Positions 4,626-36,216 are shown, numbered from the whole stretch's first letter. The stretch is 63,325 nucleotides of DNA, filler included, from 14 parts of 14 records of this genome joined end to end with filler, not necessarily neighbours in it, one strand, 5' to 3'. Notes: generated by a model not told the origin, from the letters alone. Numbers and translations are program-made.

Positions 4626-5813
4626 TTACCAGTCGCCCGAGTTGCCGTTCTCGCCCCAGCCATCTCCCTTCTCTGCTGGCGCTGGTTCCGCCTCTCCCTT
4701 CTCGGCCTTTTTGGCCTGAAGTTCCTCCTGCTTTGCGACAGTCTCCTTGATGGACTCGATGGCCTTGGCGACATTCTCTTTCGTGCCAGAAACCTTGGCG
4801 GAGTCTGTATCGCGCTGAATGTCTACCTTCGCGCCACTGCTCTCCTGCAGTGCTGCGATACTGGTGCCGCCCTTGCCGATGATCGAGCCGATTGCGAACT
4901 TGGGGATATCGACAGTCTCGACAATATGTCCCTTGGGGAGCTCCTTGCCCTTGGCCTCCTTCGCGAGCACCGCTTCTACCAGCGTGCGCGCCTTCGTTAC
5001 CGACTCCTTTGCGCCACTCAGCCGGACGCTCGGTGGGTCCCGCTCCACGTTAACTCGCGCGCCGCTGTCTTCCTGGATGGAGCGAATAGTCTCACCACCC
5101 TTGCCGATCACGGCACCGATCGCGCTGGCTGGGCACTCAACAGTCTCGGAGTACTTGGCATCCCTCAGCTGGGCCTCAATCAGCGCACGGGCCTTTTTGA
5201 CCGCCTCCTCCGTGCCGTACATGGCGCAAACTGATCCCAGGCCGCGCTCGATGTCAATCTTCGCGCCCGACTCCTGCTGCAGCCGCTTGATGTTCGAGCC
5301 ACCCTTGCCCACGATCACCGGGACTCCGTCCATGCCTACATCCATGAAGTCCTTTGCGTCGTACTTCGGGTCAAGCAGGTCGGCGATCAACTCCTGAGCC
5401 TTGGCGACAGCGGCTTTGCTACCGGAGATGTTCACTACGCCGCTGCCCTTCTCCATGTCGACCCGCGCACCGCTCTCATCCTGAACCTTCCGGATGTTCT
5501 CACCCCCGCGGCCGATCACAGTTCCACCCTTGTCCCCGACTTGGATAGTCGCGGTCGCTTCGGGCTTCGGGCCCTCGACTGCTTCGGCAATTAGGACCTT
5601 GGCCGAGGCGATCTGGTCGGCACTGCCGGAGATCTTGACCACACCGGAGTCCTTCTCGATGTCCAGCTTCGCGCCGCTCTCAGCCTGGATGGACTTGATC
5701 GTCGACCCGCCGCGCCCGATCACAGCGCCGACGGCTTTGCCGAGGTCGATGGTCTCGAACGGGCCGGAACCCGCACCGATGATTTCCATGACTTGCTTTT
5801 TCGCGCTTTTCAC
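4626..5813 (-). CDS. Multi-KH-domain RNA-binding protein (at least 5 KH repeats), 5'-truncated by contig end
   Basis: Five (V/I)(I/V)G(R/K)GG..I..(I/L/V)Q..SGA.(L/V/I)(D/N)(I/M/V) repeats. The upstream sequence looks like an intron 3' end (GCTGAC...CTGCAG). Confidence 0.9.
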   Translation of the reverse strand: MKSAKKQVMEIIGAGSGPFETIDLGKAVGAVIGRGGSTIKSIQAESGAKLDIEKDSGVVKISGSADQIASAKVLIAEAVEGPKPEATATIQVGDKGGTVIGRGGENIRKVQDESGARVDMEKGSGVVNISGSKAAVAKAQELIADLLDPKYDAKDFMDVGMDGVPVIVGKGGSNIKRLQQESGAKIDIERGLGSVCAMYGTEEAVKKARALIEAQLRDAKYSETVECPASAIGAVIGKGGETIRSIQEDSGARVNVERDPPSVRLSGAKESVTKARTLVEAVLAKEAKGKELPKGHIVETVDIPKFAIGSIIGKGGTSIAALQESSGAKVDIQRDTDSAKVSGTKENVAKAIESIKETVAKQEELQAKKAEKGEAEPAPAEKGDGWGENGNSGDW

Positions 5814-5892
5814 CTGCAGCATCATGCAGCGTTTGGGGGTCAGCCGCCGATCGGAGCCAGCGGGCAGTGGTGAGCGGGAGCAGCAACGGGCT

Positions 5893-5992: not shown

Positions 5993-6208
5993 ACACGCCA
6001 GAGGGCAGAGGGCAGAGCAGCTGCTGCCAGCAGAACTTGAAGTTGAAAGTATCTAGTATGAAGTGCACACTTCACACTACCACCTAGGGCACTAGCTCGA
6101 GGCAGGCGCTGGCGCTGTGGTCTGGAGCACTGGGTGATGTACTATATAGTAGAGTGCGCTGACATGGCTATGGCACGGTGCAGCAGGGCTGTCTGATTTG
6201 CGGAACAG

Positions 6209-9200
6209 ATGCTGCACGCCGACGGCCAGCTGGACGCCCTTTCAGTCAGCGCTCAGGGACAGGAACGGGATGAGGAGGAAGCTGGAGACGCTTCGCAGAT
6301 CGAGCTCATTCCTGTGGTTAGCAAAGAGCTCCGCCACCGCGACAGCACGACGCTCTCGACCATGGCTGGACTGCGCACCAAGGCGCAGCGGCTCGCGCGC
6401 CACAGGAAGCGCGAGTTGCGGAACCCAATGCGTGAGCACAGCACCGAATACGTGATCAACATGTGGAAAGTTTACAACCACTTGCACCTCGGCGAGCGCC
6501 ACACAGCGCAGCTCCTGAGTCTGTTCATCTATGCCGCCTACGTCTACTTCCTCACTTATTTGCTGGCGCACGTGCCTCCACCTGCGACAATGCTGCGCCA
6601 CGCAGAGGCCGTATCGGACCTTCTGCTCGGCGAAGAATTTGACCAGCAGACCACCCACATTTACAAGTCCTGGTACGACGTGATGACCGAGCAGGAGCTA
6701 TGGGAGTGGGCTTACGGCCCTCTGGCTGCCGCAGTGGGAGGTAGGAATGGCAGCCTCGACGCGCTGCTCGGCACAAATTGGCTGATCGGGCCGGTTCGAA
6801 TTCGCCAGGCGCGCTCACGGCAGGTGACCGACGACTGCAGATCCACGTTGCAAAATGTCTTTGGTCCCGCGACGGCTGACGAGCTCTACGCCCGTGGCGT
6901 CAAGTGTACGAGGGACTGGGAAGAACTGGGCAGAGAAAACGTAACTGACCCAGAGTTTCTCGATTTCAGCTACCCGCTGTCGTCGCTCGGTGAATGTACC
7001 TATGCATCGGCAGCGTGCGCCACTGCTAATGCGCACTGCAAGTCAGCCGAAGAGGTGGACTGCGCCAAGTGGAATGGTGACGAAGATGGCTGCAGAGAGG
7101 CGGGTAACTGCACCTTTGCCAAGCAGTCATTCGTACTTGCGTTTCCGCAATGGTGGGAACAGCTGCGCAACGGCAGCTGCGCCGACGACCCTTCGTCGGA
7201 CATTTGCCAAGGCAGATACTGCTGCTCGCACGTACGCTGCTATAAGAGTTACAGCGAGCAAGAAGAACACGCGACCAACGAGGATAAAATTGAGACCGCG
7301 TGCTCCATGAGACGCTTCGCAGCCAACCTCACGTGGAACCCGAAAAGTAGTTACCGGAGCAAGGTCCGAATGGACTCGACGGAATCCGAGTCGCTTTGGG
7401 CCAAAGCGATGGACGTCGGCGATGGTGGTTACCACATCGACCTGCCAGGTGATAGTGCGACGCTCGTACCCATGCTCAAGGGCCTGCAGGAGCTCGGGTT
7501 TATCGATCAGTTCACCCGCTCTGTCGACTTCCAGCTCGTCCTGATGAACAGCAACCGCTTCTCTGTGGCGGAAAGCACGATGTTGAGCAGTCCAATGACT
7601 CGCGCTACGGAGCACCACCCGGTTGTGATGGTCAATGTGGACCTGAATTTTATGTTCTCGCCGAGTGGGTTCTTGTCAAAGTACGACCGTATCACCGCGG
7701 TTCAGCTGAACCCGACCCACAGAAGCAACGAGTGGCACTTGGCATCGGAGGTGTTGCCGATCGCTGTACCGATCTGTATGCTGCTGCTGGAAATTGCGCA
7801 GATAAACGATTTGGGATTAGTGCGCTGGATATCCGATTTCTGGAATTTCTTTTCAATACTTTACATTCTCTCTATGTGGTTATGTTTGGATCATGTGATG
7901 CGGTATTTTCGCGAGGAGAGTGAATTCCTTGATCATTACAAAAACATCTCGAGCTTCGAGTACTTCAATGACATGATGCCGCTTCGCGATAGTTACAAAG
8001 ACATGAATAAATTTATCGGTGTCTTCATGTTCTGCTCGTGGTTGAAGGTTTTCAAGTACACCAAGATATTTCGGTCATCACAGGTACTGTGGAATACACT
8101 TTCCGCTGCGCGGTATCAGCTTATAGCCTACAGTTTGGTGATGCTTTTGATGATCAACGCATTTGCCATGATGACCGTAATGCTCTGGGGCTACAACTCC
8201 AAGTTCTTTCACAACGTCCCGACCGCGTTTTTTGCACTTGTCCGACTGGCTGCTGGGGAGGCTGATATGGAGTATGCAGAGCTGAAACGCGGAGACTCGT
8301 CGATGACGCCATTTGTCTTCATGACTTTCATTTTGGTCGTCGCGGTGATTGGGATGAACATGATGGTTGCTATCGTGACCGATTTTTATGAGAAAGCGCG
8401 CAACGAGGAGCGTGCATGGAACATGGACACGCGGTGGATCCAGGCGACCTTCTCGGGCAAAACGCAATACGAGGACTTTTACCGTGGAAAGGGACTGTGG
8501 AATGAACCAGTGGCCGAGAGTATTCTTGGCCCGATTGGTGAGCTGTGGAGCACGTTGCGAGGGCACTGGGTAGTCAAGCCAATCCCTATCGGCTGCGGGC
8601 CGCGGAAGTGGAATGCAATCGAAGAAAAGGTCGAGTCGAAGTTTGAGACACAGAAGTATCCATTTGTCTTACACCGATCTTCCTTGGTATATTTGCGGTA
8701 TCGTGTTGAGAGTCATGAGCACGACGAGAGATGTCAGCAGGCGCACGTGCAGCAGGAGCATCCTGGTGCCGAGCAGCTTGCTGAAGCCGACATGAAGCTC
8801 ACGAAGCCCCTGCACGCACACCGACTGAAAAAACATCACGGATACCGCCAGAAACTTTCGCGCTCTTCTGAAAAGTGGAACCCGCTTGTGTCACGTGACA
8901 AGTCGGAGATCTCGTGCCACTCTCCGGAAGACACACGCACCAAGCGGGAGCGCATAAATGCGCCCAGACAGCCTGTTGCACTCAACGTCTGGATGGCGCC
9001 GGAAAACTTCTCGCAGTACAAGGGAACCAGCTATCTCGAGTTGCTCAAAGGTCCAACATACAAGGGCAAACCTGTTGACACAATGGACCGACCTGAGCTG
9101 CAAGAGATCCTGAAAGAGCTGCTTCTGGAAGTCAACTCGAATCCAAATCTGAACCGAGAGTCGTTGCACGGTCTCAATACGGACCAACTTCGAGAGTCGT

Positions 9201-9883
9201 TGCACGGTCTCAATACGGACGAACTCCAGGACCGACTGCGCGATCTCCTGGCTGGTCTGCAACGCACTACCGAGGCTTGTACGGCTCAGGGATCCGCTTC
9301 GCAAACGCCACAGCAGCAGCATATCGGCAGTGGTGATGAGCTTTCGCTCCTGACATCGGAAGAAGGTGGAGAAGACCTCCCTGGCGAGATCGTGTTGGAG
9401 TTCCAGAAGCTAATGCCTGTCCGACGCGCAACGAAGGCCGACAAAGCCGCTATCACGGTCTCGATCGAAGATGCTAGAGAGAACTATCACGAGGCGTTAG
9501 AACAGGGCCACGCGCTCGGGCAGTGCTACCAACACTCCACAGTCGCAGATGGGGACAGGCTGGACGGTGCTAAGGGTTGCCGACTATGTGCAAAAATCAA
9601 TGCGTGTCGCAAGAGAGCGCAGGAGTGCGAACAGCGACTCCAAGAGCTGCATGGATATCGTGCAGCGCTTGAAGGTGTAGAGAGGATCATGGTTTTCCGA
9701 GTCAAGTCTGTTGATGCATGGCAAAAATTTCGACCCATGGACATTCGCTCGGATGATGTTGCTGGAAAGCTAGGCGAGAAGCTCAAAGACCAGTGTCAAA
9801 AGAACAGCGAGGGGCTTGACGTCATTACGAAAGAAGACGTGTTGCAGGTTCTGGTAGAGGTGGTTGCAAATGTCATGCGACAC
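6209..9883 (+). CDS. Polycystin-2 (PKD2/TRPP)-like cation channel, 3'-truncated
   Basis: Polycystin (TOP) domain motifs ELWEWAYGPL, NWLIGPVRIRQAR, GGYHIDL and LQELGFIDQFTRSVDF. TM helices include S6 FILVVAVIGMNMMVAIVTDFY. Long cytosolic tail. Confidence 0.88.
9155..9226 (+). repeat. 36-bp in-frame tandem duplication (RESLHGLNTDQL/RESLHGLNTDEL)
   Basis: cgagagtcgttgcacggtctcaatacggac is present twice at a 36-bp period. Confidence 0.95.
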
Positions 9884-9983: not shown

Positions 9984-10425
9984 GCCTGAGCCTGAGCCTG
10001 AGCCTGAGCAGGAGCAGGAGCAGGAGCAGGAGCTCGATGATGTCGCAATTTTGATTGCGTTCTATTCGGAGTGTGAGCCGGATTTTGCGAATGCTCAAAA
10101 AGTCAACAGGATTCTTCGAGCCTATCGAAAAAAGGCTTTAAAGACAAATCAAACTGCACAGTGGCGAGAGCTGATGTACAGCTCAATCGCAACGCAGCGT
10201 GGGGAGGATCCGCGGGACTACTGGCAGCGCGTTGGTAGCTCTCGTGCTTCTGCTGCCACCTTGAGGTCTGATGTGGAGGCGCCAGCTGCTGCTGTGCTGG
10301 CCAGTGCCCCTAGGGATCCCAGGCTCGGAAGAGGACGGCCACCGCCGCGTCAGCCACGAACGCGAGCCCGTCGCCCAAGGATCACAGCGACACTGGTTGC
10401 AAGTAGGGTCCAGCCGCAATCGTGA
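9984..10425 (+). CDS. C-terminal fragment of a hypothetical protein (EP/EQ repeat followed by a small helical domain)
   Basis: Open frame from the contig start: PEPEPEQEQE..LIAFYSECEPDFANAQKVNRILRAY..WRELMYSSIATQRGEDPR. Confidence 0.55.
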
Positions 10426-10592
10426 TGGTACGATGACTTTCCAGCGATTACTAGACGACTTGGTGTCGCATGATTGGCCTATGGCAATGAATTCAAGAAT
10501 GCTGCATCACATTCGTACGAACAGACTTCGATAACACACTTGGCGCTATTGTTATGGACAACAGAGCCACATGTTCGTTTTGGACCTGAAAT

Positions 10593-13500
10593 TTACTCAT
10601 TTGCGCCAGCTACATGGCCAGTGTTGCGGAACGTGAAATTTAAACGTCCTGGTACCATATGCAGCCAGCTTGGGGCGGTGCCCTTGTCAACGCCTGCTAC
10701 TCCGTGGAACGCCAATCTGCTTTTCCCACCGAAGACAAGCAGGTCGCCACTTTCCAATCTCACGATAGATGGCTCGGTCCCACCTTCGATCGCAACTGGG
10801 CTTCCTCTTTCGTCGAACTCAAAGCGATCATGGCCGTATGCAAAATTCGCTGCAGCACCCACCGAGAGTGACACAATCGGGTCACCTCTCGCAATGACTT
10901 CGCTCGCCTCATCTCTGTCCTGGTGGACACCGAGCCGTCCCGTGGTAGAACCAACACGCTCGTCCCCAATCGGATAAAAGTTCACGATGCATGCGTCATG
11001 ACTTGTGTCCGGGATAGAGCCATCGGCCACCTGTGTCCTGACCAGGTTGAGCCCAGACTTGAAAGCCGCAGTGAGCAGATCGGGGATAGGCGGCGGTTTC
11101 GCGCTATCGTAGTCATGGCGGCGATCCTCATACAGCCTTGATTGTAAATTCCAGTGCCCTACACATTTGCAAGACAGGAGTGAGATAGATACGCGTGCTG
11201 TTGACACCCGGGAGGTAATGTGGACATCCGAGCAGCAATCAGGCACGACTCACACCCGAGATTCATCATGAAAAGCTTCTGTGCCCCTCGACTCCCGTAG
11301 CTAGGAATGTAGAATCCACCGTCTCCAACACCAAGCGCTCCCGTAGCGTTAACTATCTCCTGTTGCTCACGCGGGCTCAGAAAGCCGCGCACGATGGCCA
11401 TTCCTTCCTGTAAGACTTCTACTGTCAGCTGTGAGAGGTCGGTCGAATGTGGGAGCACAGATGCTGCACACGGCGGTGGCCTAGTTGGTAGCAGGTCTAC
11501 CACACTCAGGTTCGTTGCAATGCCCACATCACCCGGCACACGCTTACGGCCTTCCATGCTCGCTGCCAGTGCTACTGCGATATCATTTGATTCATCCAGC
11601 TCAGCCTGCAAGTTTGACTTGGCACCAGCACCACGATTCTTCTTGTGATTGGTGTGCTTTTGTAGAGAGCGCTGGGAGCCAAGACCCGCCCTCGCCATCG
11701 CCGCAGTCTTTGCAGGCAGCTTCCATATCTTTACACAACATTCACGCACTATCAGTAACACATCTGGAGATGATATGAGACGGCTGCGACACGATCTGTG
11801 CGAGTCACTTACCTTGTGCTGACCACTCACGCGCAGTGGCACGAGCAGCTGAATCGGATCTTTAGCTACAAACAGGTATGAGGAACCATTGCCTTCATCC
11901 ACCAGTTCGCCACGCTGGCATCGGTCGCGGTACTCATCCTGGTCGATGCAGTCTGTAACCTCGATGCATCCAAGCAACATCGACGATGGAAAGTGCTCTG
12001 GCCAGGGCCATTCCTCCTGCTCACCACGGCTCACTCTTTCTTCATACTCTTGTCGCATCTCCTCAGCTTCTGAAGGGTCACAGTCACGGATAGTGCTGGC
12101 GATCCAGAGGCGGCCACCTGTTGGAACGTGAAGCACGTGCAATACATGCCAGCAGTTGTGTTAGCCCAAGAGAGTGTGTGACTGAGAACCAACTGTAGCA
12201 GCTAGAATGTCCCAGTGATCAGGTACCAGAGAAAGTGCGTCAGTGCTGCTTTACGCACGATGTGCAGTCGGCCACTCACGACCCTCCACCGTTTTGATTC
12301 CAGCAACGAGAAGGGAAGCCCACGGTTGATGCATGCTAAGACACATCCCACTGTCTCTATCCATACCCATGCTGTCCACGGAATAGCTCCCGCCACCAAC
12401 CGTCCCGAAGACATTTTGTACCCGCGTTTTGCCCTTGCTTATGTACTCTTCGTCATTGTCGGCGTCTTGGGTGTTCATCTGAGCGCCATCAATGTTCGAG
12501 CGCCAGTAGTCGAGGTCCGTCCCACCACTGCCGGCATCGTCCTGAACACGCGATCGCGCGGACGACTTGCTTTCGCTGCTAGGCTCAGCATCTGGAAGAG
12601 CAGATATGATTGCAGTGTAGGCAGGCTTAGGACCGCGCAAAAAAGGGTTGCTGTAGCTGCCCCTGCCACCACCTTGGCTCCCGGCGGTAATTTCAGTCGT
12701 GCTGTTGCCACTCCGGCCACCACTGCCCCCCACCACCACTGCCCATCACGTTGTTCGCGCCGCCGCCATAAGCACTCGTACCTACGCCGCCATCATCATC
12801 GTCGTCGTCATTGTCCGTCATGCCGTCGGTATTGTCGCCTTGTGAAGCGTCGTTTTCGGGCGCGGTGATGCTGGGCATGATTTTACGCCCTGCAAAGTCA
12901 AATGACAGCTTCACTTTGCGCGCCTCTTCCCGTTCTGCCTTCTCCTTAAGCTCCGCATCAATGATGCCCTGCTCGTGCTTCTTGCGCTCCTCATCGTTCA
13001 GCCACATCAGCGTTGTCGCGGAAGCATCATACCAGTCACTCTGATCGTCGATCACTTGGGTACGCTTCGCAGCCGTGCGGTCAAATTCGAGTAGCTTGTC
13101 CTTCGCCTTGCGAGCCTTCTCGGCAAGCTCTTCGGGAGTCGCTTCTGTGGCGGGTGTACCAGGCTTTTGGTCGGGGTTTACGCTCGAGCGACCTCCCTTG
13201 ATGATCACACCCTCGTCAGAGGGCTTCGCAGTCGCTCCTCCACCTCGGCGGCTGCGGCCCTGGGCTCCAGCTCGGCGGGCATCGCGCTGCCGGCGACCTT
13301 GTTTCTGGCGCTCTTTCTGCAGCTGCGCAAGCTGCTCCTTGCTGCCCTCGACCTGCACTCCGCACGCGTACTCTTGCTGCGGGCTGCCATCCCCATCGCA
13401 AAACAAGCAGGGCCCGAGCCCAATCTGTTCGCAAACGATGAGCCCACACGCGCCACAACTGCCGATCAGCCGGTGGTGCATTCCTTGACACAGGCACATC

Positions 13501-14177
13501 TGACGTCCTTTTTTCAGGAGTTTCGATGGGTCGGCCACGCGCAGGTTGGTGGTCTTGAAGTCCACCCCGCCCTTTTTCTGCCGGTTTTCGCCTCGTTTTG
13601 CGATATTGCCGGAACGTGCAAGGATAACTGTCGAACCATTAGAGTCTTGAGTCTTCGCCTCCCCCTTTTCGGCTGCTGGGCGCACTTGATTCGGTTTATG
13701 TGGCTTCTGCTGCTTCCTCGGGACGACGAGTGTGTCGTCCTGGTCCTTCTTCGACTTGATGTAGTAGCCACCGCCAAGCGGCGGAGCAGCCGCGGCAACC
13801 GGTTCGGGTTCGGGCTCCGGCTCGGGCTGCGGCCGCAACGTGGGCGCGGCTTTTGCTGTTGGCGCACTGCTTCCGGCGGCTGCTGCAGCGCGTTCGGCCT
13901 TCCGGGCAGCTGCCCGCGCAGCTGCACGCTCGGGCCCGGGCGGCATCGACTCCCACGACACCATGCCCGACGAAGTGGGTGCAGGTGCGGGCGCAAGCGC
14001 CGCTGGCGGCGGTGAGACCGGCGCGTGCCCGCTGGGCTGCTCCAGTCGTGGGTCCTGGCCGAGCACAAGCTCAATCGCAGCGCTCGGGTCGCTGTTCAAC
14101 TCCAGCGCCATCCGAGCCTTGCCCTCAGAACAGCAGCACACGTCCACCACCATCGCAACCATACTCGGGTCCACCAT
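10593..14177 (-). CDS. TRIP4: TRIP4/ASC-1-like protein (UBA-like, zf-C2HC5, ASCH) fused to a UIM-like motif and an AlkB-family 2OG-Fe(II) dioxygenase; one frame break near 12726-12731
   Basis: Zinc finger CLCQGMHHRLIGSCGACGLIVCEQIGLGPCLFC; KDKLLEFDRTAAKRTQVIDDQSDWY; SFDFAGR; ASCH CLSMHQPWASLLVAGIKTVEGREW..HR|GRLWIA..GQHK|IWKL; AlkB DACIVNFY, HQDRDE, FHGV and RLNFTFR. Introns 12118-12258, 11729-11812 and 11159-11253. Confidence 0.85.
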
Positions 14178-15107
14178 CCGACCTGCACCGCGCGATCTCT
14201 CAGCCTGTCCAGCGTGGCCGCGCGATCTCTCAGCCTGTCCAATGTGAACAAAAGATCAGAGAAGCTCGTAATCAACCTGGTGCAACACTGCGAATCTGGA
14301 TCTCGAGGAGCGCCTCCGGCCTGCGAGCTGCGTGTGTGTACACAGGCAGCACGAACACCAGCTGCAGCGCACGCCGTACCGGAGCGCGCGCTGGACCTGC
14401 TCGCTGCTGGCCCGGGGGGCGCGCGCGCGCGCGGCACGCGCGCTGGCCCCCGCGGCGATCGAATCACGAGATCAGTGGTTCTCGTCTGGTTCTGGTTGCC
14501 TCAACCCTCAGCCAACGTGCGGCTACGATGAACACAGCGGGTACTAGTAAGTCAGGCAGGACACGGTAAGTATAACGTGACCGGATAGCGGTATTTTGCC
14601 TCATTTGGGGCACTNNNNNNNNNNNNNNNNNNNNNNNNNNNNNNNNNNNNNNNNNNNNTTAATTAATTAANNNNNNNNNNNNNNNNNNNNNNNNNNNNNN
14701 NNNNNNNNNNNNNNCTTGTGATCTCAACTCGTCGTAGCCGCTGTATGAGAATCAGCCTGGTGCAGCATGGTGTTCGTTCTGCTGACCATCAATTCGGAGT
14801 CACTGTCAATCTGGGCACTGCACGCGCTGCAGCTGCGGCTCATGCAGGTGCGGTGGTGCGCCGGTTGCATCCGGATCCTACGTATAAATGTAGATATATG
14901 CATCCGGTATGGATGTCGCGCACCCGAGCCCTTGCGGGTTCGACAATTTGTACCGAGTTTGTACTTGCGATATATCTAGCGCGCGCGCCGGCGCGCCGCG
15001 AACTAGAGGCTCGCGCCAGGTTGTCGCGACCCACGACCGGCGTAGCGTTCGTAGATATGCATTTGATGACAGTGTGTTGCTCGGGGAGATCGCCCCTGCA
15101 CGCGCCG

Positions 15108-21553: not shown

Positions 21554-22246
21554 GCTCTCGCGCCACCCGCCACCGTATGTATATACAGCGCGCCCACCTC
21601 CTGGCGCCCGCCCTCTGCGTGCACGCCTGTGCCCCTGTGCGCTGTGCCGTGTAACCACAGCGCAGCCGTGTCCCCTTGCGGTCAGCAGCAGAGAGCAAGC
21701 AAGAAGCCCACGGGCCAGTACGCAATATACCGTGCCTCCCCCCCCCTCTCCGCCTTCTCTCCGCCCGCGCCCTGCCTGCAGGCCCACAGACCTGCCTGCC
21801 TGTCAGTCTCTCGCGTCTTGATCAGGGCCTTGTGCGCGCAGCCGAGGGCGCGGGCTCTCTTGTGGCGCTGCTGTCGTGGGGGGCGCTGCTAGACTATCGA
21901 GTACGGTATCGTATCCCAGTGATTTCTCGACCCCCTCCCCCCTCGCCCTCCCTCAGGCCGGACGCTACTATTCATAGTAGTTGAGAATTGAGTGCCATTT
22001 GTCGGTCNNNNNNNNNNNNNNNNNNNNNNNNNNNNNNNNNNNNNNNNNNNNTTAATTAATTAANNNNNNNNNNNNNNNNNNNNNNNNNNNNNNNNNNNNN
22101 NNNNNNNTCAAACTATTGATCTCAAAGGGCTGTGCTGTACTAGTAGCGTGGAAGCGTCCCTCGGGAGCGGGAATTATATAATCTTGAAATCATGGATCCT
22201 CATACTCAAAAGGTACCAACAAACGAACGCCACACGCGCTCGAGCG

Positions 22247-23998
22247 ATGCGCTTGGCTGCCTCCAGGCGGCTTGCTCGCACGCTGTCCGCTCTGGTACCT
22301 TCAGAAGCCGCCACGACCACGGAGCATGTCCCGCTCTACTGGCGAGGCGCCACGCAGCAGCTACGAGCCATTCGAGCGGGGGAGCTGTTGCCCTCGACAT
22401 TGCTGGAACTGTACATTGGTCGCGTTGAAACCATGGACAGCGAGCAGACCAACGCCGTGGTCGTGCGGGATTTCGCTCGAGCACGGAAGCGCGCGGTGGC
22501 AGCAGACGAGGCCGCCGCAGCTGGCGAGTGGTGGGGGCCACTGCACGGTCTTCCGCTCACGGTGAAGGACAACCTGGATGTCGCTGGTCTGCCTACCTCG
22601 CGTGGCGACGTCGATCTGGCCAGTGGCACTAGTGCCGTGCACAGCGATGCCGCAGTTCAGCGGCTGGAGGCGGCAGGTGCCATTGTATTTGGTAAGACCA
22701 ATCTGCCACTGCAGGCCAACGATATCCAGAGCTTCAATGATGCTTTCGGTACGACAAACAACCCACACGATCTCACGCGAACGCCCGGGGGATCGTCTGG
22801 TGGAAGTGCTGCAGCCGTTGCAGCTGGGCTCTCACCAGTCGAGCTGGGGACAGATATTGGAGGTTCGCTGCGATTTCCTTCGCATTGCTGCGGGATATAT
22901 GCGCACAAGCCAACCTTTGGCCTAGTTCCCAAGCGTGGAGGCGACGGCGTGCCAGCTGAGCCCATTGACCTATGGGTGATTGGTCCACTCGCACGTTCTG
23001 CGGAAGATCTACGCACGCTGATGACTGTGCTTGCAGACCCGGCCGCCGCAGAGCTGCCTGCGGGCGGTGTTGCCGGCTCTCCAGCCGCGGAGTTTTTGCT
23101 GGATCTGACTGGACAGACAATCACTACTTTGAAAGGATGCCGTGTGGCTGTGTGGGGAGATGATATAGTCTGCCCAGTAGGCGAGAGCGTCGCTGCTGCC
23201 ATGGACCTTGCCGTACGTGCGCTTCGCTCGGCAGGCGCTTGTATCTGCACTGATGCACGACCTGCCTTCGACCCGGCGCATTCACACCGCACGTATCTCC
23301 AGTTGCTTGGTGCGGCGACCGCTTCGAGGATGGGCCCTGAAGCATCGGCCACCCTGCTTAGCAGGAGCTTGCACTACAACAGCCTCTGGACAGAGGACGA
23401 TGTTGTGCCAGAAAGTGGTCTGGGAATCACTGACTCGGAGTGGATGGAAGTGAGCGCCATGACAATGCGCCACGCGAGGTGGCTTGCAGTAAACGAGCAG
23501 AGGGCAGGTCTCCGCATGGCCTGGGCTGGTTTCTTCAAAGATGTTGATGCGGTTATCATGCCCATCGCACCAGTGCCTGCGTTTACGCACGACCAAGATC
23601 TGGCAGACGCGCCGTACTGGAGACACTCGGGCCGCCGGGTCGCGCTGGACGTGAGCCCGGCGCGAGCGGCTGCGATTGCTGCCGCGAACACAGATCCAGC
23701 CCTTGCTGAAGGCTTTGCTGAAGGAAATGCTGGTGAATTCTGGCTTCCGTATGAGCGCCAGGTGTTCTGGGCAGGGCTTCCGACGGTTTGCCACCTCCCT
23801 GTGACTGCTGTGCCAGTGGCACCGCCTGCTGGCGCAGTGCTACCATGCGGATTCCAGGTTGTTGGGCGAGAGTGGGGAGATGGCATCACACTGCGAATCG
23901 CAGAGCTGCTGGCAGCGCACTGTGACGAGCTACTACAGCAAGGAGATGCCGACCTAGGGAGGGTAGGTCGCTGCGCTGTTCCAGCTGCTTTTCAGTGA
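22247..23998 (+). CDS. Amidase-signature family amidase, intronless, with a possible mitochondrial presequence
   Basis: GPLHGLPLTVKDN (catalytic Lys), TPGGSSGGSAAAVAAG and GTDIGGSLRFPSHCCG (Ser-cisSer-Lys triad). Arg-rich N-terminus MRLAASRRLARTLS. Confidence 0.93.
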   Translation: MRLAASRRLARTLSALVPSEAATTTEHVPLYWRGATQQLRAIRAGELLPSTLLELYIGRVETMDSEQTNAVVVRDFARARKRAVAADEAAAAGEWWGPLHGLPLTVKDNLDVAGLPTSRGDVDLASGTSAVHSDAAVQRLEAAGAIVFGKTNLPLQANDIQSFNDAFGTTNNPHDLTRTPGGSSGGSAAAVAAGLSPVELGTDIGGSLRFPSHCCGIYAHKPTFGLVPKRGGDGVPAEPIDLWVIGPLARSAEDLRTLMTVLADPAAAELPAGGVAGSPAAEFLLDLTGQTITTLKGCRVAVWGDDIVCPVGESVAAAMDLAVRALRSAGACICTDARPAFDPAHSHRTYLQLLGAATASRMGPEASATLLSRSLHYNSLWTEDDVVPESGLGITDSEWMEVSAMTMRHARWLAVNEQRAGLRMAWAGFFKDVDAVIMPIAPVPAFTHDQDLADAPYWRHSGRRVALDVSPARAAAIAAANTDPALAEGFAEGNAGEFWLPYERQVFWAGLPTVCHLPVTAVPVAPPAGAVLPCGFQVVGREWGDGITLRIAELLAAHCDELLQQGDADLGRVGRCAVPAAFQ

Positions 23999-32311: not shown

Positions 32312-35300
32312 TCACCGCCCAGACACGACTCCGACCACACCCGTTCCACCGTCGCGATTTGGTGCCGGCGAGGGTGGCAGGGAAGGTTGAAGAGCAGAGG
32401 ACTCCCGGACGGCAACCATCGGATGCTGGCCCTCAAATAGTTCAGTTCGCGCAACGTCTACATACTTGTTGCAGAACTCCCTGAAAATTCGCATCTGTGC
32501 GCACATTAATGGCAAAGCAACGCGATTAGCTGTTCTCGTATGATGCCGCAGCAGCCCAACCAGCACAAGAAGCGTACGCACCAGAGTCTTCTTCCATTTC
32601 GCGGACTGTCCAGCTTCGCTCTGCGCCAGCGAAGTCGCATAAGACCGCTCGGACGTATCGGACACGCTCCCATGACCTCCAAAACTATGCGACGTCGCCG
32701 ACCGCATCCGCAACGGAGAGGCGGGAGGCGAACTCAGCGAAAGTGCTGTGTCTGCACGAGATCTACCTATTGCTTCCTGTACTGCATCCTGCTCTCCCAC
32801 TATATCGTCAGTATCTTCCGGCAATAAGCCGTTGCGTGCCAAATAGTCCGCTGGTGCAAGTGGAGGTCCGCCATACGTCCGCAAAAATCCCAACTGTAAG
32901 AACAAACACCCACGGTAGGAGTTATGATGCATCCACTGGCAGGCGCGGTCCGGCGTCGCTGTGGTTACTCTGCACGCACGATTGACTCGGCTGAGGTCTG
33001 GAATGGATCCTGCGTGATCTCCGCCGCTGCAAGCCGTGCCTCCCGCTGAAATGCATCTGCCATTACGTTCGCGCGGTTTGCGTCTGCTTCCGCTTCCCTC
33101 TTGTCAAGCACAATTCGCTGATCGCAAGCAAACGGAGCGCAGCCGGACGAAACAAGTGGGAAGTGGCAGTTGATGAGCGAGCAGCCAGCACAGTTCGGAG
33201 TGGGGTTGGGCAGAGACTAAGCAAGCGAACAACCAACAGCATACACAAGACTGGTAGATAATTGTCGTGCGCACCGCTGCCTTCCCACGCTTCTGCAGCT
33301 TCTTGAAGTGCTCCATATCGCATCTGCCAAGAGCCTTCATGCCTTCGTCAATGAATGCCATACGCTCTCGTGCCTCAGCCAACACATCATCACTGATACC
33401 TTCCCGGGCAATCAGGCGCTCAATCACCCCAAGTGCCTCCACAAGCTCGTCGACCATTCGACGTCTATTTGAGCCAGGTGCGTCCAGCCATGCATCCCAC
33501 AGAGCAGATGCACTCGACCTGAGCTGGGTTAGCTCCTCCCGCTCACCATCGTGCACCTCTGAACGCCTTGAGAGCTCTGCCTGAGCTGCATTCCAGCTCA
33601 GCTCGAAGACGTTATAATGAGCCCGATGAATGCTCAGCTCCCCATCGCGTACTGCCGCCGCAGCCTCAGCTCTGGCCTCTTCTTCCCGTGCTTTGGCGGC
33701 AGTGACCTCGCGGATATGCTGCGGAGAAGAAGGTGATGCCCACCACTGCTGAAACGTATCAATTGCCACCATGTCTTCACCCCAATCAACCTGCTGCTGG
33801 CTCGCAGCAGCTTGCCATTTCTTGATTGCGTTTGCTCTCGGCGCTGGAATCGCGCCCATGTCTTTCATGGCTCTATCTAGGTCCAACTCTGAAAACCCAT
33901 CGCCGAGCATTTGGCACACCAAGTCATGCACATCAGACCGTCGCGCGAACATTTTGAACACCGTTCGACCACCGTCTTCCGGCTGTACAATTTCGAAGCA
34001 TGGCATGGCTGCAATATGTTCTCGCTGCAGCAGCTCCTGAACATCGTGCCGCTGCTTTTTGCAAACCTCGGCAAATGATCCTGCTGACCGCATCGCCTGC
34101 TGCTTGGTGATATGGGCGCGCTTACACTGCTGCAAGGCAGCAGTGGTAGTGTCAGCGACTGCCGCCGCAGCCTCTTCTTGCCGGGCGAAGGAAACTAGAC
34201 CCCATGAGTTGTTCAGGCCATCTCGAGTGCGCACGTTAGCCGCTAAGACCCTGCCGTGCGACTCAAACATCTTCGCCAGCACTCTTGTAGTTGTAAACTT
34301 GCCGAGTCCCCCGACATGTATGCATGTCTGCTCGAAAACACTCATGTACTCGCGGGTTGGATCTTTTATCTGAGATGCTGCCGTCACTAAGTTCTGCGTG
34401 AGCTGAGCGCCAAGCTTGTTGATAGGCACGCTTCCGAGTGCGTGCTCCATTTCTTCAGCCTTCGTTTGGTGTTCAAGGATACGCACGAGTCCCTCGAGGC
34501 AGCCCACGAGGTCGAGCACCAACTCGAGGTCTGAGTGCCAAATTTTCACAGCGTCCGGGTCGATTTCGACGACTTCGATTACTACTTTGCAAAGGTGATG
34601 AATAGATGCCCGACCAAGGCCCGCAAACGCATGCTCAACCTCTGTCTCTGAATGCGCATGGTGTATCGACATCGCAACTGCACGTGCGCGATCTAGAATT
34701 CCAACCTCCCTAGCCCATGCGGAGTTCGACTTGGCAGTTATGAACACGCCGTGCGTGGTTGCTCGCTGTGTCGCCCTGCGAAGCCCAGCTGCTCCTCCAG
34801 GGAACTCCTCAATTGCCGCTAGGCTCCGCACTCGTTCTTCTCCGGCGACCGCTTCATCAAGTTGCGAGCGATCGCCGCTGTCTCGCAGCGCGACCACTGC
34901 GGACGCGTAGCTTTGCTCAGCGTCCAAATATGCGCCTGCAATCTCCTGTTTGGCAGCTAATGCCAAACAGTCAGCCGCACGCTCGACCGGCGCAACAGGC
35001 TCGAAAGCATTCATTAGTGCTTCGAGACATTGAAGCATTGTCTCGGCAGGGGCTTCTGAAGCAGTTGTTGCACCAATGTTCATCTCGTGTAGAGCAACTG
35101 CAGCATCAGCTGCAGCAACGGACTGCTCGCTTCCTTGTTGTAGCGGCTCCATGTCACGTGTCAGACGGTAAAGTCGACGATGAAGCTCTGTTTTCTCGCG
35201 CCGGGGCATCCCGAGCCGCAGCAGTGAGGTACTGTGGGATATCCGTATCGCCTCTTCCATAGTTTGCTGCACGATCTTCCGATCTTCCCGATCGTTTTTG

Positions 35301-36216
35301 AAGTTGCAGAAAGCTTTTTCGATTCTGGCCACGTTGTCCATGTGCAGAGCCTCAGCCGTTTCCTTCTTGTCCTGTTCGTACTGAGCTTTCTGTTGTTTCA
35401 TCTCTGCTTCGTGTAGTAGCGCACTGAATTTGACGTCTGTCGGGCGAAACGTAAGGAGCGCGTGATATGTCTCGATCGCGGCGTCAAAATCAGCCGTATC
35501 AACAGCAATGCTGGCACGAGCAAGCATCGCCTCAATCTGCTTGTTTGTGATGTGTTGCTTCTCGCCGCTATATATGCGCTCCTTGTGTAGCATTCTGCGA
35601 GCTTGTTCCTTGAGCATGAGCAGAGCATCGCCAGCCTTGGTGGTGGTCAACTGCGTTTTCGTCCACCACTCCGTAAACTCGTCCAGCGTGATTTCTGCAC
35701 TTCCATCGCTGTCGATCTCCGTCATCACTGCCTGAAGGTTGCCATCTGTTAGCGACAGCCCGAGTTGCGCCGCGAGCATCTGCACCTCCTCTGCTCCAAT
35801 GGCGCCGTCGCCGTCAGTGTCGAAGAGTGCGAACGCTGCAGCACATTCCTCCTGACGCGACTTGAGCTCATCAGTTTCTTGATGCTCGAGAGCTAGCTGG
35901 ACATGAGCATCCTCAAGCTGTTCTGCAAGCGCTAAAACAGAGTCGAGGTCGTGCGCCTGATCCGCAGAACGCATCTGCTCGACCATCTGCTGCTCGTAAG
36001 CTTCTTCCGCGGCAAGCTTGTCTGCGTCTGCCGCAATCTTTTCCTGCTCTGCTCTGATTGCCGCGTCGGCTCTGAAGGTCGCAGCAGCTGCCCTGACGCC
36101 GTCCACCGACAGGTCGAGAGGGCTGCCGGAAGGCGCAGCGTCTGCAGCGGAACTCGTGGTCGGTTGGGATTCGGAGTCCGGCTCGAGCTCGGGCTCAGGC
36201 TCCGGCTCCGGCTCCG
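32312..36216 (-). CDS. Large EF-hand/TPR/RRM protein, 5'-truncated; 3' exon structure uncertain
   Basis: EF-hand pair DTDGDGAIGAEE and DSDGSAEITLDEF, TPR-like helices, and RRM IHVGGL..SWGLVSF. Confidence 0.75.

Follow-up and report, generated by a model that had tools for sequence, protein, structure and literature searches.

A TRIP4/ASC-1 orthologue with a C-terminal AlkB-type dioxygenase: a protist member of an uncharacterised fusion family

The locus described here raises the question of whether a TRIP4/ASC-1 protein (Rqt4 in yeast) and an AlkB-type Fe(II)/2-oxoglutarate dioxygenase are encoded as one polypeptide and, if so, what such a join means for the work of both parts. The gene lies on the minus strand at 10593..14177 of a stretch of marine-protist DNA of 63,325 nucleotides (nt), hereafter the window, which consists of 14 contig pieces of ~3-6 kb each joined by 13 linkers of the form N44-TTAATTAATTAA-N44 at 5893-60205. 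Because of these linkers, adjacency between the pieces is artificial; the gene itself is contained wholly within one piece, 9984-14614. A reading made from the DNA alone (the sequence-only reading) had proposed that a TRIP4 gene with three introns runs in frame into a complete AlkB domain, that two ubiquitin-binding elements accompany it, and that the architecture was new. From the domains, the stop-free reading frame across the junction, and the homologs, we conclude that this is almost certainly a genuine fused gene, a TRIP4/ASC-1 orthologue joined to a complete AlkB domain. We read it as an intact nuclear gene whose C-terminal Fe(II)/2-oxoglutarate dioxygenase is predicted to be catalytically competent.

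The junction itself provided the most direct evidence. An open reading frame (ORF) of 333 amino acids (aa), 11159-12160, is free of stops and contains the C-terminal half of ASCH, an in-frame intron (intron 2), the linker, and the N-terminal half of AlkB; because the junction sits within this single ORF, the fusion is independent of the splicing model. Contigs from four public sequencing runs, designated X1 (DNA), X5 (RNA library), X16 (RNA), and X19 (oligo-dT RNA), were aligned to the region; stretches without RNA cover, and a single unaligned end letter of the X16 contig, were taken as evidence in neither direction. A 203-nt contig of run X19 joined position 11728 to 11813, skipping 84 nt with the ends CT..AC on the plus strand, that is, GT..AG on the gene strand. 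Because the contig makes this join, we conclude that intron 2 is spliced as predicted and that ASCH is continuous with the linker at the RNA level. The junction was also covered by independent contigs from other runs, and an X16 RNA contig covering 10940-11158 ended at the first base of exon 5, a weak hint for intron 3.

The coding region extends from an ATG at 14177-14175 to a TAA stop at 10595-10593, exactly the limits proposed in the sequence-only reading, and the start agrees with the N-termini of two homologs (P0001 and P0003). After removal of three introns and one surplus G, the predicted product is ~1087 aa long and contains, from the N- to the C-terminus, a UBA-like bundle, zf-C2HC5, the third domain of TRIP4 (TRIP4_3rd), ASCH, a linker of ~100 aa, and AlkB. 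The introns, described earlier as canonical, are indeed of the GT-AG type, and homologous proteins read through all three junctions. Intron 1 (12258-12118, 141 nt, GTGCGT..CAG) is bridged in P0001 and P0128, which are continuous as AHRGRLWIAS; intron 2 (11812-11729, 84 nt, GTAAGT..AAG), which is in frame and stop-free, is bridged as GQHKIWK in P0125, P0126, and P0128; and intron 3 (11253-11159, 95 nt, GTGAGT..TAG) is bridged as LGWHWNLQ in P0125, where MMNLGWHWNLQ is uninterrupted, and as WGWHWNLQ in P0133. Retention of intron 2, whose length is a multiple of three, would add 28 aa to the end of ASCH, and P0124 carries at the same position an insert that is likewise in frame and stop-free but unrelated in sequence.

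One correction to the model was required. The zf-C2HC5/TRIP4_3rd region (ORF 12693-14255) is not in the same frame as the ASCH region (ORF 12251-12745); the sequence-only reading was right in following one frame from ASCH through to AlkB but had overlooked this 1-nt break upstream. The break falls in a G6 homopolymer with one surplus base at 12726-12731, and it is present in the window only. Contigs from both X1 and X5 had one letter fewer at 12726 and, because of this, the reading frame is restored; P0001 and P0003 are continuous through the glycine-rich stretch at the same place. An intron was considered as the cause of the frame change, but dozens of GT/GC..AG pairs near 12700-12900 fit without any being singled out, whereas comparison with the homologs and the other runs points to a homopolymer one nucleotide too long. 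We interpret this homopolymer excess as a difference of assembly or of strain, not as the mark of a pseudogene, and judge the frame break to be non-biological. Immediately before the ATG, at 14178-14255, ~32 nt starting GCGCGATCTCTCAGCCTGTCCA are tandemly duplicated. In this 5' leader the X1 contig skips 39 nt and the X5 contig is short by 2 letters, a difference of copy number.

The upstream part of the product has the domains of TRIP4. The zf-C2HC5 domain proposed earlier was recovered by Pfam above its cut-off at 13392..13505 (PF06221, 1.6e-7, 31.6 bits against a cut-off of 25.8) and aligned with residues 138-209 of human TRIP4 (8alz_A); TRIP4_3rd followed at 12876..13046 (PF23134, 1.5e-7, 32.2 bits against 27.7), aligned with 8alz_A 251-342. 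The N-terminal part of ASCH, CLSMHQPWASLL...GIKTVEGR, forms the end of exon 2 (12259..12340; PF04266, 2.7e-5, 25.2 bits against 21.2), where the Pfam match spans the first 27 profile positions; its C-terminal part, exon 3 (11813..12117), matched the human TRIP4 ASCH structures 8yxw, 2e5o, and 8alz at ~1e-13. The end of ASCH (IWKL) and the basic, low-complexity linker of ~100 aa occupy 11429..11728, where conservation was limited to close relatives. When the N-terminal 482 aa were compared with solved structures, they matched human TRIP4 (8alz_A, 3.8e-22, over the zinc finger and third domain) and yeast RQT4 (7zpq_CC, 0.0066). Because of these matches to human TRIP4, yeast RQT4, and the TRIP4 ASCH structures, we regard the upstream part as genuinely orthologous to TRIP4. 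The GIKTVEGR segment fits the GxKxxExR octapeptide by which classes of ASCH have been described (preprint 10.64898/2026.02.27.708502).

The downstream part is a full-length AlkB domain. Its N-terminal part, LTVEVLQEG...KLFMMNLG in exon 4 (11254..11428), aligned with E. coli AlkB, with the fused homologs, and, by way of the lycophyte homolog P0266, with the N-terminus of the rice structure 5xeg; the catalytic core in exon 5 (10596..11158) matched 2OG-FeII_Oxy_2 (PF13532) at 1.3e-30 and PDB entry 5xeg at 8e-28. Exon 5 covers positions 49-194 of the 194-position profile, and exon 4 aligns with the N-terminal strands of homologs that span positions 1-194 in a single ORF. The catalytic motifs pointed out earlier all fell in the expected columns of E. 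coli AlkB: HQD (10917-10925) with H131/D133, the distal H (10704-10706) with H187, and RLNFTFR, of the form RxxxxxR (10626-10646), with R204/R210. In the alignment of the window protein, exons joined, with E. coli AlkB from NC_000913.3, 13 of 14 key positions were identical (W69, Y76, N120, Y122, L128, H131, D133, D135, H187, R204, N206, T208, and R210), R161 being the sole difference; the equivalent of W69 lies in exon 4 and that of Y76 in exon 5. We take H131, D133, and H187 to be the iron triad of the E. coli enzyme, N120, Y122, R204, N206, and R210 its 2-oxoglutarate ligands, and W69 and Y76 the aromatic residues of its nucleotide-recognition lid. The equivalents of the iron triad, of all five 2-oxoglutarate ligands, and of W69, Y76, and D135 are thus identical in the window, and it is quite probable, judging from these residues, that the domain is an active dealkylase.

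As to type, the closest PDB match to exon 5 was the rice enzyme (5xeg, 8e-28), followed by E. coli AlkB (7.6e-10), human ALKBH1 (0.21), and ALKBH2 (0.4). No ALKBH3 chain was matched at E≤1 by exon 5 or at E≤0.001 by P0266. The earlier assignment to the bacterial-AlkB/plant-ALKBH1 type, and not to ALKBH3, therefore stands, with rice OsALKBH1 as the nearest solved relative. Scores with the NCBIfam AlkB equivalogs were 67.9 and 59 bits, far under the cut-offs of 267 and 231, and because of this the domain is not an E. coli AlkB orthologue in the strict sense.

To what extent is the fusion found elsewhere? HMMER, run exhaustively with ORF 11159-12160, yielded 364 proteins at E≤1e-3, seven of them at E≤1e-30. 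Close relatives (P0124-P0129, 70-88% identical) kept the ASCH-linker-AlkB order, or whatever part of it each covered, and P0124 kept an in-frame intron. A word-based search added P0001 (891 aa, 70% identical), a full TRIP4 running into AlkB, P0002, which is fused and 41% identical, and P0003, which is truncated inside ASCH. More distant fusion proteins were 23-45% identical to the window protein. A word-limited search for longer proteins with exon 5 gave four matches, P0266 being the best at 41% identity, and provides no count of relatives. Of the 425 stretches matched in a scan of metagenome contigs with the junction alignment, 114 encoded a relative, and we retained the best 80. AlkB lay downstream of a TRIP4-like ASCH in 10 of these 80 loci, all 10 being among the 42 with at least 900 nt of downstream sequence; in the other 32 of the 42 no AlkB was present downstream. 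Five were single uninterrupted fused ORFs: L040 (924 aa), L064 (920 aa), L049 (965 aa), L004 (784 aa), and L025 (905 aa). Pfam found ASCH and 2OG-FeII_Oxy_2 in all five and zf-C2HC5 with TRIP4_3rd in four, and the N-terminal TRIP4 domain TRI4_N above its cut-off in L040 and L049, that of L064 falling under it. L025 (2-2716) has in addition a DUF2196 domain (3.8e-16) between ASCH and AlkB. A check of the environmental contigs for poly-A ends was uninformative, only L010 ending in 8 A, and we do not claim them as transcripts.

A profile built from the five environmental ORFs, run against 5.8 billion proteins, gave 488 matches, of which 120 were listed; among those listed, at least 17 proteins combine PF13532 with TRIP4-family domains according to precomputed Pfam assignments. 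Carriers of the fusion include the haptophyte Chrysotila carterae (UniRef) and the dinoflagellates Effrenium voratum and Durusdinium trenchii (NCBI; ASCH and AlkB), and the liverwort Riccia sorocarpa was also among the matches listed with TRIP4-family domains and PF13532. Our own Pfam scan of ten database proteins found AlkB in all ten and ASCH in nine. The Chrysotila protein A0A7S4BLK2 (P0292, 859 aa) has zf-C2HC5, TRIP4_3rd, ASCH, and AlkB, and both land-plant proteins scanned, P0033 of Riccia and P0266 of the lycophyte Diphasiastrum, have zf-C2HC5, TRIP4_3rd, and AlkB but no ASCH. Against solved structures P0266 matched human TRIP4 at 1.5e-34, rice 5xeg at 8.9e-75, and yeast RQT4 at 3.8e-8. 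The ESM Atlas holds a cluster of 54 members, mostly streptophyte, with a TRIP4N-AlkB architecture (score 0.83), which we treat as a lead only. In a quick tree of 30 AlkB domains, with E. coli as the sole outgroup, the window domain grouped with the plant rows (91 by the Shimodaira-Hasegawa-like approximate likelihood ratio test, SH-aLRT) on a long branch of 1.63, and the fused protist domains were spread over several clades. The tree is compatible with a single old origin of the fusion, and suggests it without proof.

The idea that the architecture was new is therefore overturned: the fusion is already widespread in algae and in environmental contigs and occurs in a shortened form in land plants. 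Its annotation, on the other hand, consists only of automatic generic names, such as 'ASCH domain-containing protein', 'Fe2OG dioxygenase domain-containing protein', and 'alkylated DNA repair dioxygenase AlkB'. In the full-text literature outside subscription journals, we found no description of a TRIP4-AlkB or ASCH-AlkB fusion apart from a passing listing in Ginkgo, where a gene-family paper gives 'the zf-C2HC5 domain in GbALKBH1B' without comment (PMC13296198). The accessible parts of PMC4738411, PMC11214414, and PMC8199739 contain none, although Figure 4 or the supplement of the first may show one. The window gene adds another member to a fusion family that already exists but is uncharacterised.

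The two ubiquitin-binding elements proposed earlier fared less well. In the window protein Pfam found no match to TRI4_N (PF23135); in its place, residues 1-40 (14058..14177) form a UBA-like three-helix bundle in an AlphaFold2 model of the N-terminal 56 aa, built from a four-row alignment, with helices at 4-14, 18-27, and 31-39 and a predicted local distance difference test score (pLDDT) of ~91 over residues 1-40. Most of the 50 best Foldseek rows for this model were NAC, EF-Ts, HYPK, UBA, and CUE domains, the CUE domain of ASCC2 ranking fourth. The top matches all had E>1; there was no Foldseek match at E≤0.001 and no Pfam UBA match at E≤10. The N-terminus is thus UBA-like in its predicted fold, as had been proposed, but not by Pfam, and ubiquitin binding by it is putative. 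The second element, DESNDIAVALAASMEG at 11549..11596 in the linker, resembles a ubiquitin-interacting motif (UIM) at the motif level only; it fits what we take to be the UIM pattern, an acidic run followed by hydrophobic-xx-A-xxx-S. It is kept in P0001, P0124, P0125, P0127, P0128, and P0129 and is visible in P0126, but Pfam gave no UIM match in the linker at E≤10, and a pattern search of the distant fused proteins found the motif absent, which restricts it to the close clade. Loose pattern matches in L004, P0013, and P0292 were rejected, lying inside the AlkB domain or lacking the acidic run. The claim of ubiquitin readers is weaker than the sequence-only reading stated.

Comparison with described systems places the window protein as a cis variant of the ASCC-AlkB partnership. 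With human ASCC3-TRIP4 and ASCC-ALKBH3 it shares zf-C2HC5, the third domain, and ASCH, and the idea that a dealkylase of the AlkB family cooperates with the ASC-1 helicase complex is common to both (PMC10076317); the human TRIP4 and ALKBH3 proteins, however, are separate and bind ASCC3 in a mutually exclusive manner (PMC10076317), whereas in the window the dealkylase is covalently part of TRIP4, the UBA-like N-terminus replaces TRI4_N, and the AlkB domain falls outside the ALKBH3 clade. The yeast RQT subunit Rqt4 is orthologous in its N-terminal region but has no AlkB domain. Rice OsALKBH1 (5XEG/5XOI) resembles the window protein over the whole of exon 5, but the solved chain, to which the comparison applies, is a 231-aa AlkB domain. 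E. coli AlkB shares the active-site and lid positions listed above but, unlike the window protein, is a stand-alone enzyme of 216 aa. Closest in plan are the protist proteins P0292, L004, L040, L049, and L064, with the same zf-C2HC5, TRIP4_3rd, ASCH, and AlkB at 23-45% identity, though none has the UIM-like motif. The land-plant proteins P0033, P0266, and Ginkgo GbALKBH1B have zf-C2HC5 and a C-terminal AlkB of the window's subfamily, P0033 and P0266 lacking the ASCH that the window protein keeps.

A mechanism can be proposed from the human structure, in which TRIP4 is attached by its zinc finger to the C-terminal cassette of ASCC3 (Jia et al. 2023, PMC10076317), an arrangement that puts ASCH at the DNA exit of the helicase. 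By analogy, the zinc finger of the fusion protein would dock it on an ASCC3/Slh1-type helicase, ASCH would sit where the unwound strand leaves, and AlkB, on the flexible linker of ~100 residues behind ASCH, would remove methyl lesions of the 1-methyladenine/3-methylcytosine (m1A/m3C) type from the emerging single strand, whether of mRNA drawn from collided ribosomes or of unwound DNA. The fusion would then do in cis what human ALKBH3 does in trans, and competition between TRIP4 and ALKBH3 for ASCC3 would be avoided. The main argument is that, because the fusion recurs in several lineages, the TRIP4 and AlkB activities would share a substrate. Whatever lies beyond domain content, such as repair at stalled ribosomes or on DNA, is inferred by homology. 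We give about an even chance to the proposal that the fusion works on a helicase-delivered strand in this way, and hold the explanation as a whole with moderate confidence.

Several observations weigh against this interpretation. The contigs of X5 carry all three introns; they may be DNA and are mute on transcription. Among the contigs of X5, X16, and X19, no single RNA contig extends from ASCH into the AlkB catalytic core; in the interval 11400-11730, for which the sequence-only reading had asked for RNA support, the splicing of intron 2 joins ASCH to the linker. One X19 contig covers 11337-11474, the start of AlkB in exon 4, and then continues with 114 unrelated letters that occur nowhere else in the window; such an end may reflect chimerism of the contig, a different allele, or a further splice partner. 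In human cells, knockout of TRIP4 left sensitivity to methyl methanesulfonate (MMS) unchanged (PMC10076317), and rice OsALKBH1 (5XEG) is described as an N6-methyladenine demethylase and not as a damage-repair enzyme (review PMC8118384). Finally, the dinoflagellate proteins P0009 and P0010 (Effrenium and Durusdinium) carry HxE rather than HxD and have no residues equivalent to N120 and R204, from which it follows that activity is not uniform across the fusion family; their 2-oxoglutarate binding or activity may be altered.

Could the fusion instead be an artefact, whether a chimera of assembly or amplification or a pair of adjacent genes mistakenly merged? The window does consist of short contigs chained by artificial N linkers, and its RNA cover is patchy; however, a single piece contains the whole gene, the junction falls within one ORF and is covered by contigs of other runs as well, and the fusion recurs as single ORFs in many independent assemblies and lineages. 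With so many independent homologs fused, the chimera in the linker that the sequence-only reading had allowed for is excluded, and an artefact of any kind is extremely improbable and close to refuted. No more credible is a pseudogene created by a frameshift in the G6 run. The assembled window does require a shift of frame at 12726-12731, but contigs from two other runs are one G shorter at that site, no other stops occur, the catalytic residues are all kept, and homopolymers such as this one are prone to assembly errors.

Two further explanations accept the fused gene and give it other work. The first would make it a reader and eraser of N6-methyladenine (6mA in DNA, m6A in RNA), ASCH recognising the modified base, AlkB erasing it, and TRIP4 acting in its coactivator role, so that the protein would serve regulation rather than repair or rescue. 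Consistent with this, the nearest solved relative is OsALKBH1 (5xeg, 8e-28), whose knockout is reported to raise 6mA levels (PMC8118384), and Iyer et al. 2016 (PMC4738411) propose the TRIP4 ASCH as an m6A discrimination module and note fusions of AlkB to reader domains. The pocket of the window protein is nevertheless like that of E. coli AlkB, including the D135 equivalent, although this does not discriminate, rice 5xeg also having HQDKD; and structural work places TRIP4 on the ASCC3 helicase (PMC10076317). On balance we consider this explanation unlikely. Still less probable, and in our view very unlikely, is a two-headed RNA de-modification enzyme in which a catalytic ASCH removes N4-acetylcytidine (ac4C) and AlkB demethylates the same RNA substrates. 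Overexpression of the human TRIP4 ASCH in E. coli is reported to lower tRNA ac4C, but the same domain, TRIP4_ASCH, is inactive on the free nucleoside (preprint 10.64898/2026.02.27.708502). The window ASCH has the GxKxxExR octapeptide (GIKTVEGR), yet land-plant relatives keep AlkB without ASCH, and the two domains are therefore not obligately coupled.

The preferred explanation, a dealkylase docked on the helicase through TRIP4, can be extended to the history of the family, here more tentatively. The fusion may have had a single early origin, in the line from which plants, haptophytes, dinoflagellates, and this protist descend, and would then represent the ancestral ASC-1/RQT arrangement, with AlkB on the TRIP4 adaptor cleaning methyl lesions from the RNA or DNA strand extracted by the helicase. 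Land plants would then have dropped ASCH, AlkB taking its place at the strand exit, and animals would have swapped the cis domain for a separate, competing ALKBH3. This scenario is rather doubtful; if it were true, the plant 'ALKBH1'-type enzymes with zf-C2HC5 would be helicase-docked repair or quality-control factors and not free epigenetic erasers.

Other pieces of the window carry ordinary eukaryotic sequences. A ribosomal DNA unit lies at 46887-51402 on the plus strand, with 18S at 46887-48694, 5.8S at 48941-49094, and the 5' part of the large-subunit (LSU) gene at 49500-51402. ORFs for a polycystin-type cation channel, an amidase, a multi-KH-domain protein, an EF-hand/RRM protein, and an fn2/NIDO protein lie on other pieces, at 6197-9880 (+), 22109-23998 (+), 4626-5891 (-), 33104-36214 (-), and 52882-56226 (+); none of these five is related to the ASC-1 complex.

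For the window itself, the practical result is a corrected gene model in which the frame break is judged non-biological. For the family, the recurrence of the fusion argues strongly, on comparative grounds, that TRIP4 works in one complex with an AlkB dealkylase and that both act on one substrate. Human cells differ in that TRIP4 and ALKBH3 are separate proteins competing for ASCC3, and there TRIP4 is considered dispensable for alkylation repair. The fusion suggests a re-reading of the plant ALKBH1-type proteins that carry zf-C2HC5, and it yields a testable hypothesis, that AlkB repair, whether at collided ribosomes or on DNA, is linked to the ASCC3/Slh1 helicase by the TRIP4 zinc finger. Tractable organisms, for instance a liverwort or a haptophyte in culture, are open to a test of that hypothesis, given the span of the family from haptophytes, dinoflagellates, and uncultured marine protists to land plants without ASCH.

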